Made by a program: the position numbers and the translations under genes
Source: Candidatus Saccharimonadales bacterium
GTDB lineage: Bacteria > Patescibacteriota > Saccharimonadia > Saccharimonadales > JACDBH01
DNA length: 64,000 nt
Assembly (NCBI GenBank): GCA_041752595.1
Contig: JBGSWE010000003.1
Coordinates: forward strand, 13,720 to 77,719
Direction of reading: 5' to 3'
Part shown: piece by piece, positions 3,522 through 13,766 of the stretch
Layout of the letters: each line of letters begins with the position of its first letter
How positions within the stretch are numbered: the stretch's first letter is position 1
Notes under the pieces: model-generated
The model's database searches: none
What the model saw: the letters and a program-made list of their open reading frames with translations, nothing else
What the model was told of the DNA's origin: nothing

Positions 3522-5171
3522 ATGGCTAAAAAAGTATTTTATGACGAAGACGCAAGACGTAGGGTTTTAGAGGGTGCACGGATTTTATACGAAGCAGTTA
3601 AAACTACTATGGGGCCAAAGGGTCGTAATGTTGTTATTAGCAAAAGTTACGGTGGTCCAACTGTTACCCATGATGGCGTGACAGTTGCAAAGGGTGTTGA
3701 TATTGCAGATGTAGATGATGAAACTTTGGGTTATAAAGTTGGTGCCGAGCTTATAAAACAAGCCGCCAACAAAATGAATGATGTCGCAGGTGATGGCACT
3801 ACGACGGTTACAGTACTGACTTATCATATTTTGCACGAAGCCAATAAGTTGATTGCTGCTGGACATAATCCAATGCTACTTAGAAAGGGCTTGGAAGCTG
3901 CAGCACACGACGTCATAAAAGCCCTCGATGGTCTAAAAGAAGACATAGTTGGTAAAAAAAGTCGTGTTGCAGAAGTCGCAACTATATCAGCTGGTGACGC
4001 CGAAATAGGTAAATTAATCGCTGATGTTATAGATAAGGTTGGAAAAGACGGTGTAGTTACTGTAGAAGAAGGCCAAGGACTTGATCTAGAAAGCGAAGTT
4101 GTAGAAGGTTTTACTTTTGACCGTGGATTTATAAGCGCTTATTTAGTGACTGACACATCACGCATGGAAGCTGTTCTAGATAAACCACAAATCTATATTA
4201 CTGATAAAAAGATCAGCTCAATTCAAGAATTCTTGCCAGTACTAGAACGCGTTGCTCAAAGTGGTAAAAAAGATCTAGTAATTATCGCAGAGGATGTTGA
4301 CGGCGAAGCACTTGGCACTTTAGTTCTAAACAAACTAAAAGGCGTACTGAATGTAGTTGCTATCAAAGCTCCAGCTTTTGGTGATAGACGAAAAGATATC
4401 TTGAATGATATTGCCGTATTAACTGGTGGTGTCGTTAACACAGCCGACTTGCATGAGACTTTTGATGTTGAAGGCGAAGATTACCTCGGTACCGCTCGTA
4501 AGGTAATAGTAACCAAAGACGAAGCTACGATTATTGAGGGTGGTGGTGCAAACGCAGCTGTTAAAGCGCGGGTTGCTCAAATTACTTCACAAGCTAGCTC
4601 TGCAAGTAATGAATACGACCGTGAGCAGCTAGAAAAACGCCGCGCAGCTCTTAGTGGTAAAGTTGCTGTAATTAAAGTTGGTGGGGCTACCGAAACCGAG
4701 ATAGAAGAAAAGAAATTCCGAGTCGACGACGCCGTAGCTGCAGTCAAAGCTGCGCTTGATGAGGGAATAGTTGCAGGAGGTGGAGTAACACTCATTAATT
4801 TAGCCACAACAATTAAAAATTCTAGCTCAGAAGATGCCACTGTTACTGCCGGTAAAACAATACTTATTAATGCACTAGAACAGCCATTTAGGATTCTGTT
4901 AACAAATGCAGGGCTAAATGCTGACGAATGGTTACCTCAAGTTAAAAAAGGTAAGTCAGGACAGGGCGTAGACGTTAATAACCCTAGCAAACTAGTGGAT
5001 ATGAAGTCTGCTGGAGTAGTTGATCCTGCACGCGTTACAAAAGAGGCAGTCCAGAATGCCGTTTCTATCGCTGGTACAGCTATCACCATGGGCGCTTTAG
5101 TAGTCGATGTACCAGAACCTAAAGCCGCAGCTCCTGATATGTCAGGTATGGGCGGAATGATGGGAATGTAG
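3522..5171 (+). CDS. groEL: chaperonin GroEL
   Basis: AGDGTTTVTVLT, the VAAVKAPGFGDRRK-like AIKAPAFGDRRK, and a C-terminal GGM repeat (MSGMGGMMGM). Confidence 0.98.
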   Translation: MAKKVFYDEDARRRVLEGARILYEAVKTTMGPKGRNVVISKSYGGPTVTHDGVTVAKGVDIADVDDETLGYKVGAELIKQAANKMNDVAGDGTTTVTVLTYHILHEANKLIAAGHNPMLLRKGLEAAAHDVIKALDGLKEDIVGKKSRVAEVATISAGDAEIGKLIADVIDKVGKDGVVTVEEGQGLDLESEVVEGFTFDRGFISAYLVTDTSRMEAVLDKPQIYITDKKISSIQEFLPVLERVAQSGKKDLVIIAEDVDGEALGTLVLNKLKGVLNVVAIKAPAFGDRRKDILNDIAVLTGGVVNTADLHETFDVEGEDYLGTARKVIVTKDEATIIEGGGANAAVKARVAQITSQASSASNEYDREQLEKRRAALSGKVAVIKVGGATETEIEEKKFRVDDAVAAVKAALDEGIVAGGGVTLINLATTIKNSSSEDATVTAGKTILINALEQPFRILLTNAGLNADEWLPQVKKGKSGQGVDVNNPSKLVDMKSAGVVDPARVTKEAVQNAVSIAGTAITMGALVVDVPEPKAAAPDMSGMGGMMGM

Positions 5172-8720: not shown

Positions 8721-9121
8721 CTTAGATACCTGGAATGCCTCTTTCAAGTAGATCTTCTTTGGTTTCGAATTCTAAATAGTTTTGAGTTAGTTCTTCACCT
8801 TGCGCTATATCACGCTCTGCAACTAAATAGGCATTTTCGTAATTTTGGTCTTGGGTTAGGTTTGCCTCAGTAGGAATGGTTTATGAATTTTGAAACATCA
8901 AAATCTACGTGCCACATTTGTGTAGGCTGGTCAAAAAAACCCCACCACCTTAACTCAACTTTTTCTTTTTCACTTAATTTATCGAATTCTGTTTGAGTAA
9001 TATTCAAATCGAGAGCGGGGCTGGCCGTATATATCAATTCATCTTTTTTAATGTCTTGGTCAGCAAATAGTCCAATACCATGCTTACTAGAATTATCTAA
9101 CTTATATTTGATATGAATCAT
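8721..9121 (-). pseudogene. SET-domain protein gene disrupted by two single-nucleotide frame shifts
   Basis: Frame 1 (9121->8870) ends ...FINHSY then TGA. The next frame (8868->8821) reads EANLTQDQNYENAYLV. A third frame (8819->8721) reads AERDIAQGEELTQNYLEFETKEDLLERGIPGI*. Joined, they give a full SET fold (GIGLFA...NHS...GEELT.NY). Confidence 0.7.
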
Positions 9122-9175
9122 ATCAAAAGTATATCATTCAGCTCTTTTGAATAAATTAAGTCGACCTAAAGCTAT

Positions 9176-9204
9176 TTGTATATAATTGTTTTAAATGATA
9201 TAAT
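9176..9204 (+). promoter_or_regulatory. sigma70-type promoter of the small-TM cassette
   Basis: TTGTAT (9176-9181), 17-nt spacer, TATAAT (9199-9204). Confidence 0.55.
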
Positions 9205-9289
9205 ATAGTTATAGTTTCACAACTCGGTGAATCTCGATGTGCTTGGCAATGCTAGGTACACACTTTTCCCTAAGGAGGGAGGTGATTTA

Positions 9290-9517
9290 ATGTTGGAAAG
9301 ATTTGAAAACGCGTGGTTTGGTCTGGTGATTTTCATCATTGCTTGGTGCATTTTCGGCATCGCAGGCTTGATTCCTTGGGATTACTCCCAAGTAGATCCA
9401 AACTGGGAATGGCATATGAATACTCATAACGCTTGGTTGGCTTGGGGACTTTTCGTCACCCTTGCTGCAACAGCTTTTGGGTTCTTTGCCTACGCCGTCA
9501 AGCGTTGGACTGACTAG
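9290..9517 (+). CDS. small two-TM membrane protein (75 aa)
   Basis: SD AAGGAGGGAGG lies upstream of the ATG at 9290. Two hydrophobic helices, Trp-rich loop. GC is higher than the flanks. Confidence 0.65.
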   Translation: MLERFENAWFGLVIFIIAWCIFGIAGLIPWDYSQVDPNWEWHMNTHNAWLAWGLFVTLAATAFGFFAYAVKRWTD

Positions 9518-9742
9518 CCAGCACTTCAATAACTCTGCCCAGAGTATAAATCTTACGCAAGTAAGAAAGTGGTTAATGGAGAAATCCATTGTCTGCAAGG
9601 GCAAGCTATCATCTGGCAATAGATAGCTTGAGCGTACGGTCTCGATGAAATGTTAGTCTAATACCTAACTATAAGTTGAGAATAAGGCGTAAGCCAAGGG
9701 GTAGTTGAGAACTATATTTTATATATTTTTCCTACTCCTCAA

Positions 9743-9798
9743 AAAACGTCAATGAATATTTTTCATTCTGATGAGTCTAATTAAAGACGAAACGTTTT
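9743..9798 (+). ncRNA. type III hammerhead ribozyme
   Basis: AAAACGU-C / AAUGAA-UAUUU-UUCAUU / CUGAUGA / GUCU-AAUUAA-AGAC / GAA / ACGUUUU. All core positions are present, with a GUC cleavage triplet (C17 = 9750) and helices I/II/III of 6/4/7 bp. Confidence 0.88.
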
Positions 9799-9799
9799 A

Positions 9800-11032
9800 C
9801 TATTCGTAACGCAATGATTCGATGGGGTCTTTGCGGGCGGCTTTGATTGCTGGGATTGTGCCAAAAATAATACCCACAACTGCCGAAACGCCGACTGCTA
9901 CAGCAATAATTTGCCATGTTACGGCCGGTTGCAAATCTGTTGTTATCCTAAAAACTGCGTTTCCGAGTAGGGCTATAAATACACCAATCACTCCACCAAA
10001 GACACTAATTACAGCTGCTTCAATTAAGAATTGGCTGTATATCTGGCGATTTGTGGCGCCCAAGCTTTTCCTGACACCAATTTCACGAGTACGTTCAGTG
10101 ACGCTAACGAACATAATGTTCATTATTCCAATACCACCAACCAACAATGAAATAGCGGCAACACCTGCTACGAATGTTGTTGCAATAGATACTGTATCCC
10201 GAGCTATTATTTCTGTTTCGCTAGATTTTAATACAGTGAAGTCGGCTTGTCCGCCGTGAGTTATTAAGAGCTGGCTATTGGTGGCTTGAACTAGAGATTC
10301 GGGCGAAACATCTTGTTTGGGTAGTAGCATTAACTGATAGATGTTTGGTGCTCCGCCGGCCAAAGATTTAGCAACTGGAAATGGAATAAATATTGATTTA
10401 TTAAGATCTGTAACGGCACTTAGAGGGTTGGTTTTAAACTCGTCAAACACTCCACCCACGATAAAATCCTGGTCTCTGATTGATATTAGTTTACCAAGTG
10501 GTACGTTTTCCTTAAATAATTCTTCGGCTACACGTTTACCCACTACAACAACATTAGTACTAGTATCATCAAAAAACGAACCATAGACAACTTGCTGGCC
10601 TAAAACTTCTGGTAATTTGGAAGTGCTTGCAATAATTGTAGCGTCTTTGTAAGTTTCGTTTTCGAAGTTTTTTACCTGTCCAGATATTGTTGCAAGTGGA
10701 ACAACTACTTCTACATCTGGTAGTTTTTTTAATGCTTCAAAATCTTGTTCGGTTAAACTGTTGCTACCTAAGGCAGCGAGATAGTTTACGTTTGAGACAT
10801 TTCCTGACTCGTCTCTTACGGCAATTTGTCCAGAACGGACAGTAACCAGCTGCTCGTTACCAGACTGATTAGTTGATGCAACCTGGCGTCTCACGCCTTC
10901 ACCTAGCGAAACCATCATAATTACTGAGGCTACACCAATAATTATGCCCATCATTGTAAGAGTGCTTCTGAGTTTGTTGCTCCTGATTGATTCAAGAGCC
11001 ATGCGTGTATTGGTATTAAAATGGCTGGTCAT
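9800..11032 (-). CDS. ABC transporter permease, MacB/FtsX family
   Basis: N-terminal TM, large periplasmic MacB-like domain, C-terminal FtsX 3-TM block (ERTREIGVRKSLGA). Confidence 0.88.
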   Translation of the reverse strand: MTSHFNTNTRMALESIRSNKLRSTLTMMGIIIGVASVIMMVSLGEGVRRQVASTNQSGNEQLVTVRSGQIAVRDESGNVSNVNYLAALGSNSLTEQDFEALKKLPDVEVVVPLATISGQVKNFENETYKDATIIASTSKLPEVLGQQVVYGSFFDDTSTNVVVVGKRVAEELFKENVPLGKLISIRDQDFIVGGVFDEFKTNPLSAVTDLNKSIFIPFPVAKSLAGGAPNIYQLMLLPKQDVSPESLVQATNSQLLITHGGQADFTVLKSSETEIIARDTVSIATTFVAGVAAISLLVGGIGIMNIMFVSVTERTREIGVRKSLGATNRQIYSQFLIEAAVISVFGGVIGVFIALLGNAVFRITTDLQPAVTWQIIAVAVGVSAVVGIIFGTIPAIKAARKDPIESLRYE

Positions 11033-11922
11033 TTCTTAACCTTCTTTTTAGCAGGAGTTTTAGTCTTCTTAGCCTTGGGCGATTTTTTGGTCTTCTTATT
11101 GGTTAAATGTTTTCTGGCTGGTGCGGGCCGGCTAGGGATCTCATTTAGATACGCCGAAACACCCTCTAGTTGCTCATCTTCATCATTCCTGGGTTGTTCA
11201 TCACCGCCACTACGGGCTCTTTTAGGAACCTCACCTAACTTAGTTGATTCGTCATAAACAATTGATCCATCAACCACGTATAAGACTCTAGTAGCATATC
11301 TGGTTAGCTCTGGGTTGTGGGTGACCATTAGAATTGTGCTGCCAGTAGAATGCAGTTCTGCTAATAGCTCCATAACTACTTTGCTACTCAAGCTATCTAA
11401 GTTGCCAGTTGGTTCGTCCGCGATAATTAAATCTGGGTTGTTTACTAGTGCTCGTGCAATGGCCACGCGCTGGGCCTGGCCACCAGACAACGCCTTGGGA
11501 TAATAGTATTCACGGTCAGAAAGTCCTACACGTTCTAGTGCAGCTGCAGCCTGATTAAGTCTTTTAGTTCTAGACACTCCTTTGTAAGACAAGGGAAGGG
11601 CGACATTATCAAGCGCGGTTAATCTAGGCAATAAATTAAATGACTGAAAAATAAATCCAATATGATCCCTACGTGCTTTGGCCAATCTATTCGGCCTTAG
11701 TCTTGATACTACTCGGCTACTCAAGCTGTAAGTTCCATGGGTTGGACGGTCTAATAAACCGATTATATTCATAAGTGTAGATTTGCCAGAGCCGCTTGGA
11801 CCCATTATCGCAACAAATTCACCCTTAGTAACTGTTAGGCTTATTTCATCCAAAGCGACAGTGGTAGCATTACCAAATCCATACAATTTTGATACTTCTT
11901 TGAGCTCAATCACAACAGACAT
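11029..11922 (-). CDS. ABC transporter ATP-binding protein (MacB/LolD type) with a Lys-rich C-terminal tail
   Basis: Walker A GPSGSGKST, signature LSGGQAQR, Walker B LIIADEPT. Tail ...KKTKKSPKAKKTKTPAKKKVKK. 4-nt overlap with the permease gene. Confidence 0.93.
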   Translation of the reverse strand: MSVVIELKEVSKLYGFGNATTVALDEISLTVTKGEFVAIMGPSGSGKSTLMNIIGLLDRPTHGTYSLSSRVVSRLRPNRLAKARRDHIGFIFQSFNLLPRLTALDNVALPLSYKGVSRTKRLNQAAAALERVGLSDREYYYPKALSGGQAQRVAIARALVNNPDLIIADEPTGNLDSLSSKVVMELLAELHSTGSTILMVTHNPELTRYATRVLYVVDGSIVYDESTKLGEVPKRARSGGDEQPRNDEDEQLEGVSAYLNEIPSRPAPARKHLTNKKTKKSPKAKKTKTPAKKKVKK

Positions 11923-12069
11923 ATCTTATTACTATACGCATTTTTACTATCTGTTAGCAAGGTGTAAAAAATTTAATTATCAGATATAATGTTTTTACCA
12001 AAATAGTAAACTAAGTTTTTTGTTATTTAGATTATTGAAATTTGTACTTTACCTAGTGTATTTAAATGT

Positions 12070-12159
12070 GGAGAGGTCGCCTAGTGGCCTATGGCGCCGC
12101 CTTGGAAAGGCGGTTTGGGGGCAACTCCATCGAGGGTTCGAATCCCTCTCTCTCCGCCA
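12070..12159 (+). tRNA. tRNA-Ser (anticodon GGA), long variable arm, CCA encoded
   Basis: Acceptor GGAGAGG/TCTCTCC, anticodon stem CCGCC/GGCGG with loop TTGGAAA, T-arm GAGGG-TTCGAAT-CCCTC, 18-nt variable arm, 3' GCCA. Confidence 0.9.
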
Positions 12160-12164
12160 AATTT

Positions 12165-12190
12165 AAAAACCCACCTGAGTGTGGGTTTTT
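12165..12190. terminator. bidirectional rho-independent terminator
   Basis: AAAAACCCAC (12165-12174) pairs with GTGGGTTTTT (12181-12190). A/T tracts on both sides serve the tRNA (+) and the 12219-12479 gene (-). Confidence 0.75.
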
Positions 12191-12218
12191 AAATAACTAT
12201 CTGGTCAAAATATTGGAT

Positions 12219-12479
12219 TTAGCGTTTGCGGCGTCCGCTTAGTCTAGCTAAAAAGATTGACTCAACTAAGCTCCAGATAACTGCATTTGCAAGGAAAATA
12301 GCAGATGCAACACCTGTAACAAACAAGATATCTTGGCCAGTTCTAGAATCTACTAGACTTACTAATCCAGCTGTTAATAGTGAGAACACAATTAAGAATA
12401 TGTAAATGTGCTGTAATTTTTGTCTTTCGTTTGTAGATTTATTCCACTCTAACACTGCATTAAACAATGAATTATACAT
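12219..12479 (-). CDS. small membrane protein (86 aa)
   Basis: ORF track. Two hydrophobic helices and a basic C-terminus. Confidence 0.55.
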   Translation of the reverse strand: MYNSLFNAVLEWNKSTNERQKLQHIYIFLIVFSLLTAGLVSLVDSRTGQDILFVTGVASAIFLANAVIWSLVESIFLARLSGRRKR

Positions 12480-12599
12480 CGGGTGAGTCTCCTATTTATG
12501 ATAATAATATAACATTGTTTGTGTTAATTATCAACATAGTGGTATTACTATTTTGAAAGAGTGAAATATAGGAGCATAATGAAAATACAAGGAGATATT

Positions 12600-12800
12600 A
12601 TGAAAACTAAACAAACGTATTTACTTATCGGCACAGTATTGAGTTGGGCAATTGGTTATTTGGGTGCTGATAGATTTTATAAAGGTGATGTAGCTTTGGG
12701 GGTTATCAAACTCATTACTCTAGGTGGCTTTGGTGTTTGGTGGATTATAGACGCAGCAATTTGGACCTATAATTTAGGCAAATCTCTTGATAATAAATAG
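12600..12800 (+). CDS. TM2 domain-containing membrane protein
   Basis: GYLGADRFYKGDVALGVIKLITLGGFGVWWIIDA matches the TM2 pattern. SD GGAG precedes the ATG at 12600. Confidence 0.75.
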   Translation: MKTKQTYLLIGTVLSWAIGYLGADRFYKGDVALGVIKLITLGGFGVWWIIDAAIWTYNLGKSLDNK

Positions 12801-12808
12801 TTAGATGT

Positions 12809-12866
12809 TTCACTTTTCGTCTTGATCTTAGACTCATCAGCATGACAACGTAGTCATAGAAGTGAA
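12809..12866 (-). ncRNA. type III hammerhead ribozyme
   Basis: Minus strand reads UUCACUU-C / UAUGAC-UACGUU-GUCAUG / CUGAUGA / GUCU-AAGAUCA-AGAC / GAA / AAGUGAA. Full core, C17 = 12859, helices I/II/III of 6/4/7 bp. Confidence 0.88.
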
Positions 12867-12941
12867 GATAACAGACAGATAGTTTGAGGGGTTGGCGGGA
12901 GCCGAATGCCTGGTTGTCCCAAACTGACTCTGCCTGTTATC
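12867..12941 (-). other. 13-bp hairpin directly abutting the hammerhead 5' end
   Basis: Minus-strand GATAACAGGCAGA (12941-12929) pairs with TCTGTCTGTTATC (12879-12867), with one G-U pair and a 49-nt loop. No gap before helix III of the ribozyme. Confidence 0.65.
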
Positions 12942-12972
12942 CGCACTTTATCCTTTTTTGGTTTGAGGGTTT

Positions 12973-13194
12973 TTAGGCCATCATGGCTTTGATTGGTGAT
13001 TCACGGATTGGTGCACGGAACTCCTCGGCAGTAAACTCACATTTTTCATGAGTGGCGAGGCAGGCGAAATTGCACCAACATTGTCTGCGTCCATCACATC
13101 CCTCAACCAGTGCCGATCCTCGACGAATTACAATGACGCGGGCGTCACAAACGTGTGGTGACTGTGGTTTTTGTCGGCGAAACGGGAATTTCAT
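12973..13194 (-). CDS. small Cys-rich protein (73 aa)
   Basis: ORF track. Seven Cys (CDARV, GCDGRRQCWCNFAC, HEKC) suggest metal binding. GC-rich. Confidence 0.5.
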   Translation of the reverse strand: MKFPFRRQKPQSPHVCDARVIVIRRGSALVEGCDGRRQCWCNFACLATHEKCEFTAEEFRAPIRESPIKAMMA

Positions 13195-13206
13195 CGCTTC
13201 AGTTGC

Positions 13207-13476
13207 TCAGTCGACTGGGGGCTCTTCTTCATGATCATCTGCCGTTTCATCGACGTATTCACCGTTGAGCCGGTCGACGATCTCTTGCAAGAGCTCATTT
13301 GATAGGCCATCCGGCGGTACGATGATTGTACCGTTGGTGAGTACGAATTCTTCAAAGACAATTTCTCTACCCATGACATCGTTGATCAGTACATGAGCTT
13401 GTTCGATCCTGAAATCACCCTCTGCATCGAACGACAAATCATCGTCCCCATTCTGCCAGTTGATCTTCAGTTTCAT
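13207..13476 (-). CDS. small acidic protein (89 aa)
   Basis: SD AAGGAGAG precedes the ATG at 13476 (MKLKINWQNGDDD...). Acidic C-terminus (DETADDHEEEPPVD). GC-rich. Confidence 0.6.
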   Translation of the reverse strand: MKLKINWQNGDDDLSFDAEGDFRIEQAHVLINDVMGREIVFEEFVLTNGTIIVPPDGLSNELLQEIVDRLNGEYVDETADDHEEEPPVD

Positions 13477-13766
13477 ATCTCTCCTTAGCTCACTCGCCAC
13501 GGCAGGATGCCCTCTACAACTTTAGTAAAGTGTGTGTATTTGGTAACACACAAGGTGAGTAAGGAATCCAAAATAATGATTACGAACTCTTTACTAACCT
13601 TGTGCATTGATACACATTTAACTATCTATCTGCTTGTAAAATAACTACCCTAACATTCTGCTAAGGACCTAACAAGTTTAGCAATTATAGATATTTTGTC
13701 AATTTTATACTATAGTAATCCTAATTATTATATTGAACGAAGGGTGTAAGGTAGTAGACTAGAGTC

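Follow-up and report, generated by a model that had tools for sequence, protein, structure and literature searches.

What is a self-cleaving RNA doing at the very end of a small accessory cassette, beside the stop codon of an oppositely transcribed gene? The question arises twice in a 64,000-nucleotide (nt) stretch of DNA from a Candidatus Saccharimonadales bacterium (contig JBGSWE010000003.1, positions 13,720 to 77,719; the whole stretch is called the window here), which contains two type III hammerhead ribozymes, HH1 and HH2. An earlier note on this DNA had proposed that they act as terminator substitutes or insulators. We find that both are members of a family with ~100 copies in metagenome-assembled genomes (MAGs) of Candidatus Saccharibacteria. 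The cassette order is a sigma-70-type promoter, a leader (in one subfamily), one or two GC-rich and mostly orphan open reading frames (ORFs), a long hairpin, and a compact type III hammerhead. We favor, with moderate confidence, a reading in which the hammerhead belongs to a self-contained accessory cassette, sets the 3' end of its mRNA, and insulates that end.

Two hammerheads with complete cores

HH1 (9743-9798, +) and HH2 (12809-12866, -) were the only RF00008 matches in a permissive Rfam scan of the whole window, with 46.5 bits (E = 5e-7) and 36.5 bits (E = 3e-4), respectively. Both fall under the RF00008 gathering score of 48.5 bits, which is why a default Rfam scan reports tRNA-Ser alone. 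R1, a covariance model built from the family alignment described below, scores them at 56.9 and 60.6 bits. In both hammerheads the catalytic core is complete (CUGAUGAG...CGAAA, an A-U pair closing stem III, and three stems), and the cleavage triplets are allowed ones (N-U-H), namely GUC in HH1 and UUC in HH2. The predicted cut sites lie 3' of C9750 (GUC^A) and 3' of C12859 (UUC^U).

Each ribozyme is the last element of its cassette, at the distances given earlier. The 3' end of HH1 is 1 nt from the stop codon of a MacB/FtsX-type ABC permease gene (9800-11032, -; Pfam MacB_PCD and FtsX), and a distance of 8 nt separates HH2 from the stop codon of a small TM2-domain gene (12561-12800, +; Pfam TM2); both convergent neighbors lie outside the cassettes. 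The absence of a canonical terminator at either junction was likewise confirmed, in that a simple terminator scan found no terminator-like site at 9518-9800 or 12800-12972 and the sequence 3' of the window hairpins is not U-rich. We note that the same scan missed a classical bidirectional intrinsic-terminator hairpin (AAAAACCCAC...GUGGGUUUUU) at 12157-12195, after the tRNA-Ser gene.

A hammerhead family in Saccharibacteria

Scanning one genome per species with a pattern of features common to HH1 and HH2 (TCATNCTGATGAGTC, a gap, and GACGAAA) retrieved 89 stretches, nearly all from Candidatus Saccharibacteria MAGs, with a handful of unrelated matches inside ORFs. Family members score 44 to 80 bits with R1, which added 14 copies in the fetched loci, where up to three copies occur per 8 kb. 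Extrapolation from such multi-copy loci, rather than whole-genome counts, suggests a copy number of roughly at least 10 per 1-Mb genome.

An RNAalifold alignment of 84 copies recovered three stems, all of which covary. Each stem III pair shows 30 to 52 double-sided changes, and the first stem I pair (1.1-2.1) covaries heavily, occurring as C-G, U-A, or A-U. The CUGAUGA core is present in 97/100 family copies, the others having an allowed N7 variant (two copies) or a C3 change (one copy). At the cleavage site, position H17 is C in 60 copies, U in 19, A in 18, and G in none. The family is marked by very short loops, a stem I of 6 to 7 bp with a GUGU-type loop, and a stem II of the form GUCC-AAAA-GGAC. 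In type III hammerheads, rapid cleavage at physiological Mg2+ depends on a tertiary contact between the stem I and stem II loops. Eight consensus members rescanned with RF00008 gave 36 to 41 bits, all below 48.5; the sub-threshold scores thus reflect a divergent subfamily and not a broken motif. Annotation at the Rfam gathering threshold overlooks every copy rescanned, and our literature searches returned no relevant record of hammerheads in Saccharibacteria, TM7, Patescibacteria, or the candidate phyla radiation (CPR). Across ~100 family members, the unit has the organization that the earlier note had described for the window: its own promoter, small GC-elevated ORFs, a structured tail, and the hammerhead last.

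Three weaker hammerhead-like matches were seen within 1.7 kb on one contig of a Nitrosopumilaceae archaeal MAG (L030; 542-598, 1807-1863, and 2181-2237, all -). They score 19 to 32 bits with R1 and are probably a separate hammerhead cluster.

The hammerhead marks the end of the upstream unit

The earlier note had supposed that the ribozymes are aimed at the 3' ends of convergent core genes. Gene orientations around 96 copies do not bear this out as a rule. The upstream gene lies on the hammerhead strand and the downstream gene is convergent in only 38 copies (~18 expected from gene-pair orientations), and both neighbors are co-oriented with the ribozyme in 40 (~31 expected). An oppositely oriented upstream gene is combined with a co-oriented downstream gene in 14 copies (~16 expected) and with an oppositely oriented one in 4 (~31 expected). 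The enrichment at convergent junctions that the note had anticipated is therefore real, at ~2-fold, yet such junctions are not the rule. Proximity to the convergent gene does not single it out as a target either. Hammerheads commonly lie 0 to 3 nt from the convergent neighbor's stop codon, but hammerhead-free convergent gene pairs in the fetched Saccharibacteria loci are equally tight, with a median gap of 19 nt and 37% at ≤3 nt (overlaps included). The 1-nt and 8-nt distances in the window thus represent normal compaction and not targeting, and the same tight spacing means that most convergent 3' ends in Saccharibacteria loci are without room for a terminator.

The usual partner is the gene upstream, which is co-oriented in 80/98 copies and whose stop codon lies a median of ~105 nt ahead of the ribozyme. 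This fixed placement after a co-oriented gene indicates that the hammerhead marks the end of the upstream unit. The intervening RNA is highly structured: folding of the 130 nt past the upstream stop codon gave -47 kcal/mol, compared with -30 kcal/mol for other genes of the same loci (p = 1e-23). The 3' hairpin is ~80 to 110 nt long, and its 3' arm ends 0 to 5 nt from the cleavage site in 65/99 copies, overlapping stem III. The 50 nt preceding the cleavage site are pyrimidine-rich (66 to 68% pyrimidine, 9 to 16% G). Across the whole family the strand asymmetry of the hairpin is weak (-2.9 kcal/mol). Beyond the ribozyme, the gap to the next co-oriented gene contains promoter-like signals equal to those of divergent-gene controls.

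Composition sets the upstream genes apart as well. Hammerhead-tailed genes exceed their locus neighbors in GC content by 6.9 points (64/70 positive, p = 5e-12), and the GC content of convergent neighbors is no different from that of other locus genes. Cassette GC tracks host GC with a slope of 0.87 and a constant offset, GC at third codon positions being 15 points higher; a common GC-rich donor pool was rejected on this ground. The cargo itself is diverse. The 65 upstream proteins matched 20 Pfam families, almost all by a single protein, most proteins had no match, and just three small similarity clusters were formed. Five PHROG families were matched, each by one of the 65 proteins, and PADLOC matches were sporadic. 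With matches in Pfam, PHROG, NCBIfam, and PADLOC scattered or absent, the idea that the cargo is a phage or defense gene set was dropped.

Some loci contain several units. In L015, two hammerheads (4529-4590, +, and 4623-4685, -) stand face-to-face 33 nt apart, each closing its own convergent cassette (76-aa and 359-aa ORFs). Runs of three gene-hairpin-hammerhead units within 8 kb occur in L087 (1950-4759, -) and L021 (495-6295, -); the three cargo genes of L087 are paralogs (30 to 56% identity) with one ribozyme apiece.

Cassette and hammerhead are inherited or lost as a unit

In relatives, the core gene order around the window cassettes is ArgRS, DUF1361, HTH, FMN reductase, PIG-L, DUF1801, a variable slot, tRNA-Ser, ABC ATPase, permease, a second variable slot, PGI, and GroEL; the window cassettes occupy both variable slots. 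In five relatives whose permease is 69 to 75% identical (L173-L177), other genes fill these slots, and no leader, cassette ORF, hairpin, or hammerhead is present. There, other genes follow the permease gene without a hammerhead. In the 75%-identity relative, the cassette 2 slot (L173:3561-4325) holds genes for a heliorhodopsin, a DNA glycosylase, and a DUF1295 protein. The permease and PGI genes are directly adjacent in L095, a more distant relative.

In contrast, L179, whose permease is 66% identical, has an ortholog of cassette 2 beside DUF1801, with promoter boxes, 5' hairpin, both ORFs, 3' hairpin, and hammerhead. The L179 hammerhead scores 66.4 bits with R1 and has a compensatory change in stem II relative to HH2. 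The non-coding elements, including the leader, are better conserved between the window and L179 than the proteins are. Retention of all parts in L179 and absence of all parts in L173-L177 mean that the leader-ORFs-hairpin-hammerhead unit is inherited or lost whole, the point that the earlier note had wanted checked at syntenic loci. What lies 3' of the hammerhead in L179 is a convergent tRNA-Ser gene in place of TM2. Because the TM2 gene is absent from this syntenic relative, the claim that both neighbors are core genes fails, and the swap of neighbors shows that the ribozyme goes with the upstream cassette.

Two further searches returned little. A metagenome scan with the permease retrieved only distant relatives (≤53% identity), and the 644 kb so obtained contained no hammerhead. 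Exact-protein look-ups with the cassette proteins and DUF1801 found the same organism only (Logan runs SRR28170465-67), and no strain-level empty site.

A conserved leader with a 14-mer complementary to the 3' hairpin

A conserved 5' leader of ~170 nt unites cassette 2 with roughly one-quarter of the family. Its parts follow in the order -35 and extended -10 boxes, a small hairpin, a 14-mer (family consensus TGACAAGCAGACAG), a long hairpin, a UGUGU/ACACA element, a further hairpin, and a ribosome-binding site. The long hairpin, P2, has compensatory changes in 19/28 pairs among 12 leaders. A model of the leader, R2, retrieved 27 leaders, of which 24 to 25 have a family hammerhead 0.5 to 1.6 kb downstream on the same strand. 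Rfam scans of the window region and of six loci with leaders gave no match to the leader.

The 3' hairpin beside the ribozyme contains, in its 3' arm, the complement of the leader 14-mer. Complementarity between 5' untranslated region (UTR) and 3' arm in 65 cassettes is well above that of mismatched pairs (p = 1.4e-9). Within the 3' hairpin, the opposite (5') arm reads as a degenerate version of the 14-mer, with A-to-G and C-to-U changes that preserve G-U pairs. In the 14-mer subfamily, the sense strand of the hairpin folds at -42.8 kcal/mol and the antisense strand at -33.1 kcal/mol (p = 0.001), with 13.5% versus 5.6% G-U pairs. The G-U-preserving changes and the sense-strand stability together indicate an RNA-type constraint on the hairpin.

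Variants of the leader cassette were also seen. At L089:5483-6160(+), a terminator-like GC hairpin and a short U run replace the hairpin and hammerhead. In three loci (L019:2377-2450, L042, and L051), the cassette promoter (-35 GATTGAC) stands directly after the CCA end of a tRNA gene, which hints that tRNA 3' ends may be preferred cassette sites.

The two cassettes of the window

The tiny ORFs listed in the earlier note all exist and have homologs. Cassette 1 has a candidate promoter region at 9108-9210 (+), predicted from TTGATA-18-TATCAT at 9108-9137; an AT-rich stretch containing TATAAT follows at 9178-9207, upstream of the ORF. A Shine-Dalgarno sequence (AAGGAGGGAGG) lies ahead of the ORF (9290-9517, +), which encodes a 75-aa protein with two transmembrane segments. 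One homolog was found (P0123, 58% identity), and it likewise adjoins a PGI gene; its contig (L178) stops 105 nt past the stop codon, too soon to judge whether a hammerhead follows. The structured 3' UTR (9532-9738, +) has seven predicted hairpins, the last at 9697-9738. The minimum free energy (MFE) of this tail is -65.5 kcal/mol (z = -4.13), and 0/200 shuffles were as good.

Cassette 2 begins with a predicted promoter-like site (13675-13702, -; TTGACA-16-TAAACT with an upstream TG), whose -35 and -10 boxes are kept in the L179 ortholog and throughout the leader alignment. The structured leader (13500-13671, -) scores 90 bits with R2 and comprises, in order, a 5'-terminal stem-loop (13648-13666), the 14-mer TTACAAGCAGATAG (13626-13639, -; its complement is in the 3' hairpin), the long hairpin P2 (13544-13611), and the UGUGU/ACACA and AGAGGGCAUCC elements. 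ORF1 (13207-13476, -) encodes an acidic 89-aa protein that is almost an orphan. A syntenic homolog of equal length, P0125, shares 45% identity with it when aligned by phmmer and 40% when aligned globally, and the differences by codon position (32/27/53) are in excess at the third. Searching for homologs by word matching gave essentially nothing for either the 89-aa or the 75-aa protein; P0125 surfaced in the full HMMER search alone. ORF2 (12973-13194, -) encodes a basic, Cys-rich 73-aa protein (RRQKPQSPH..CDGRRQCWC) whose motif CDGRRQCWC...EKCEFTAE is kept in L179. No match to the 75-aa, 89-aa, or 73-aa proteins was found in Pfam, PHROG, or NCBIfam. The diverged homologs (58% and ~40 to 45% identity, and a conserved Cys motif) therefore identify the three cargo ORFs of the window as real genes. 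Cassette 2 couples a strongly acidic protein with a basic one, and the acidic protein weakly resembles the repeat unit of the large multi-repeat proteins P0124, P0126, and P0127.

The long 3' hairpin of cassette 2 (12860-12948, -) is conserved in L179, and its 3' arm (CUAUCUGUCUGUUAU) continues into the 5' strand of hammerhead stem III. Its MFE is -37.4 kcal/mol (z = -4.96; shuffles as good, 0/200), so that the long structured non-coding tails reported earlier are upheld in both cassettes. The reported GC elevation stands in part, being clear in cassette 2 (0.48 to 0.53 versus ~0.40) and slight in cassette 1. Elsewhere in the region, an Rfam "Plastid-psbl-rps4" match (12122-12156, -; 35 bits) is the antisense of the tRNA-Ser T-arm and an artifact.

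A model for the cassette mRNA 3' end and its alternatives

We propose that RNA polymerase would read on through the hairpin and the ribozyme, whereupon the hammerhead would fold and cut 3' of the NUH site, a few nucleotides beyond the hairpin. The cassette mRNA would then end in a 2',3'-cyclic phosphate directly behind a very stable hairpin and should resist 3' exonucleases. Read-through RNA would be severed with a 5'-OH and would no longer be in the message, so that a strongly promoted cassette would be insulated from a convergent or co-oriented downstream gene. In the leader subfamily, the 14-mer of the 5' UTR would pair with the 3' arm near the cut site, which may close or regulate the message. 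A role in making 3' ends is favored because of the fixed position of the hammerhead, its linkage to the upstream gene, the face-to-face pair in L015, the promoter-like gaps downstream, and the replacement by a terminator-like hairpin at the same place in L089. The part of the earlier proposal that assigned the ribozyme a 3'-end function fits these observations; the part concerning the fate of the RNA is a prediction.

Several points weigh against this model. Self-cleavage of HH1, HH2, and their relatives is predicted from their sequences, and the loops of HH1 and HH2 are longer than, and unlike, the short semi-conserved family loops (GYGU, AAAA); these atypical loops, together with low family scores, make the two window copies less sure to be active than consensus members. 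When hairpin and hammerhead are folded together at equilibrium, the mean probability of stem III is 0.21 (0.004 for HH2), its 5' strand being contested by the base of the hairpin. The idea that the cleaved 3' end snaps back into a blunt hairpin gained no support, as pairing of the last 8 nt (~0.5) was not clearly above that of a swapped control. The neighbor orientations were obtained with a simple home-made gene caller on fetched loci, and the placement is divergent intergenic in 14/96 copies, some of which may reflect small ORFs missed by the caller. One locus (L034:3200-3830, +) has kept the leader and the 3' arm of the hairpin, with the hammerhead truncated past the start of stem I. Finally, ordinary intrinsic terminators exist in the source genome, so a terminator substitute is not generally needed.

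The strongest alternative, which we consider possible but unlikely, is that the hairpin and hammerhead, along with the inverted 14-mer repeats, delimit a DNA cassette that is mobile or can be exchanged. Its conserved ends would serve recombination or transposition, and the ribozyme would be a passenger or serve the life cycle of the element. GC-elevated, mostly orphan cargo is consistent with this, as is the patchy distribution of a unit found in the window genome and in L179 (66%) and missing in closer relatives (69 to 75%), with both window junctions being variable islands in relatives. The sequence-conserved 14-mer forms an inverted repeat around the ORF in many genomes, the three cassettes mentioned above begin right after a tRNA 3' end, and L087 has three tandem paralog units with a hammerhead each. 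However, the window copies are alike in the ribozyme core alone, with no sign of recent transposition there, and cassette 2 stayed at one site while its protein diverged to ~40 to 45% identity. Promoter and hammerhead both lie outside the 14-mer repeat pair, substitutions in the hairpin are G-U compatible and strand-specific, indicating selection at the RNA level, and cassette GC follows the host and not a common donor pool. Integron attC core sites are absent (0/96), and viral links are few, with the five single-protein PHROG matches noted above and just 3 true family members among the 2.9 million viral contigs of IMG/VR. As an account of cassette origin, mobility is compatible with a hammerhead that makes mRNA 3' ends.

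The two ideas could be combined into a genome-wide modular system for accessory genes, in which a leader and a hairpin-hammerhead trailer have complementary 14-mers, mRNA 3' ends come from the ribozyme and not from a terminator, and the conserved ends also allow cargo to be swapped between genomes. We regard this as a rather unlikely proposition.

A regulated switch made of hairpin and hammerhead is quite improbable. In such a switch, the stem III 5' strand would pair alternatively with the base of the hairpin, or the 3' arm with the 14-mer of the leader, and the choice of partner would control cleavage and so tune expression as in hok/sok or icaR. The position of the hairpin 3' arm, which reaches into stem III in most copies, the low probability of stem III when the hairpin is folded along with it, an AGUG/CACU extension that the hairpin has in both the window and L179, and a 14-mer/3' arm complementarity far above mismatched controls would all suit such a switch. 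Against these stand the pairing of the last 8 nt, no clearly better than in swapped controls, thermodynamic models that omit hammerhead tertiary contacts and co-transcriptional order, and a 14-mer leader present in only about a quarter of cassettes.

A role for the hammerhead in the downstream gene, trimming the 5' UTR of a co-transcribed message by intercistronic processing or as a natural RiboJ-like insulator, is very doubtful: 40/96 copies precede a co-oriented gene, typically by ~75 nt, a type III hammerhead remains on the 5' end of the downstream fragment after cleavage, and bacterial hammerheads have been suggested to process polycistronic phage transcripts (PMC3088659), but a convergent gene alone lies downstream in 38/96 copies (both window copies included), the ortholog hammerhead stays with the upstream cassette while the downstream neighbor differs, the long hairpin and GC-rich cargo are always on the upstream side, and the gap to the next gene has promoter-like signals at the level of the positive control.

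Comparison with known systems

A large and consistent natural data set, with one position and one kind of cargo in one small-genome lineage, makes the question of hammerhead function testable, and some Saccharibacteria can now be cultured with their hosts. The cassettes mark a variable, probably exchangeable, portion of Saccharibacteria genomes, and the leader is a conserved RNA, without an Rfam match in the scans run, that is tied to hammerhead cassettes. New here are a family that spans the lineage yet scores below threshold, its one location at the 3' end after a long hairpin, a cargo of GC-rich orphan genes set among core genes and not in prophages, and the conserved leader with its complementary 14-mer.

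The earlier note overstates its case in calling such a use of hammerheads undescribed. Bacterial hammerheads beside small non-conserved ORFs, often in prophages, have been reported since 2011, with the cutting of long transcripts into gene-length mRNAs discussed as a possible role (PMC3088659, PMC6155905, and PMC6765202). The role of the hundreds of bacterial hammerheads has nonetheless been called "largely elusive," with only glmS understood (PMC6765202). The Saccharibacteria family resembles other RF00008 type III hammerheads in its core, its three stems with stem III open, its NUH site, and its adjacent small proteins of unknown function. It differs in its very short loops, its sub-threshold scores, and the placement of one ribozyme per unit, 3' of the gene behind a long hairpin. 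In the prophage clusters of Perreault et al. (2011), several ribozymes flank genes, often near integrases. The short tandem runs in L021 and L087 are similar, whereas the window hammerheads are flanked by housekeeping genes and not by prophage or integrase contexts, in keeping with the few PHROG and IMG/VR matches.

RNA 3' ends and insulators made by ribozymes offer a second comparison. Natural and engineered cases include eukaryotic co-transcriptional cleavage elements, 3' hammerhead, hepatitis delta virus (HDV), or twister cassettes, and RiboJ; in the glmS ribozyme, the 5'-OH product is degraded by RNase J1. In all of these, as proposed here, self-cleavage parts the message from downstream RNA, so that the upstream piece ends in a 2',3'-cyclic phosphate and the downstream piece begins with a 5'-OH. 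The Saccharibacteria elements would differ in being natural to bacteria, constitutive, and placed in the 3' UTRs of many unrelated genes, and no ligand control is evident in the family. Intrinsic terminators and repetitive extragenic palindromic (REP) elements occupy the same place, past the stop codon at the end of the transcription unit, where a stable hairpin would protect the 3' end. Unlike these, the Saccharibacteria hairpin has no U tract and is 4 to 5 times longer, and the end would come from RNA cleavage and not from polymerase release.

Long-range pairing between the two ends of an mRNA is known from the hok/sok fold-back (tac-fbi) and from the 3' UTR-5' UTR interaction of icaR. The leader subfamily is comparable in having a conserved 5' UTR segment whose complement lies at the very 3' end of the message after processing. 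It is unlike them in that its cargo is diverse with no toxin family, the pairing is predicted, and the 3' end would be made by a ribozyme instead of exonuclease trimming.

Integron cassettes offer a further parallel, with small, mostly orphan, compositionally odd ORFs, a long imperfect palindrome after each, and sometimes short tandem runs. The palindromes are not attC sites: R'' (RYYYAAC) and R' (GTTRRRY) occur together in 0/96 hairpins, and R' is present in no 3' arm. The gene context showed no intI/attI array arrangement at the cassettes, although no systematic integrase search was made. In contrast to integron cassettes, the Saccharibacteria units have their own -35 and -10 boxes and are dispersed singly among core genes (PGI, ABC transporter, and DUF1801), and their palindrome is under RNA-type (G-U) constraint and is followed by a ribozyme. 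If the modular-system reading were true, these units would be an RNA-defined counterpart of integron cassettes and would provide the first general physiological role for bacterial hammerheads.

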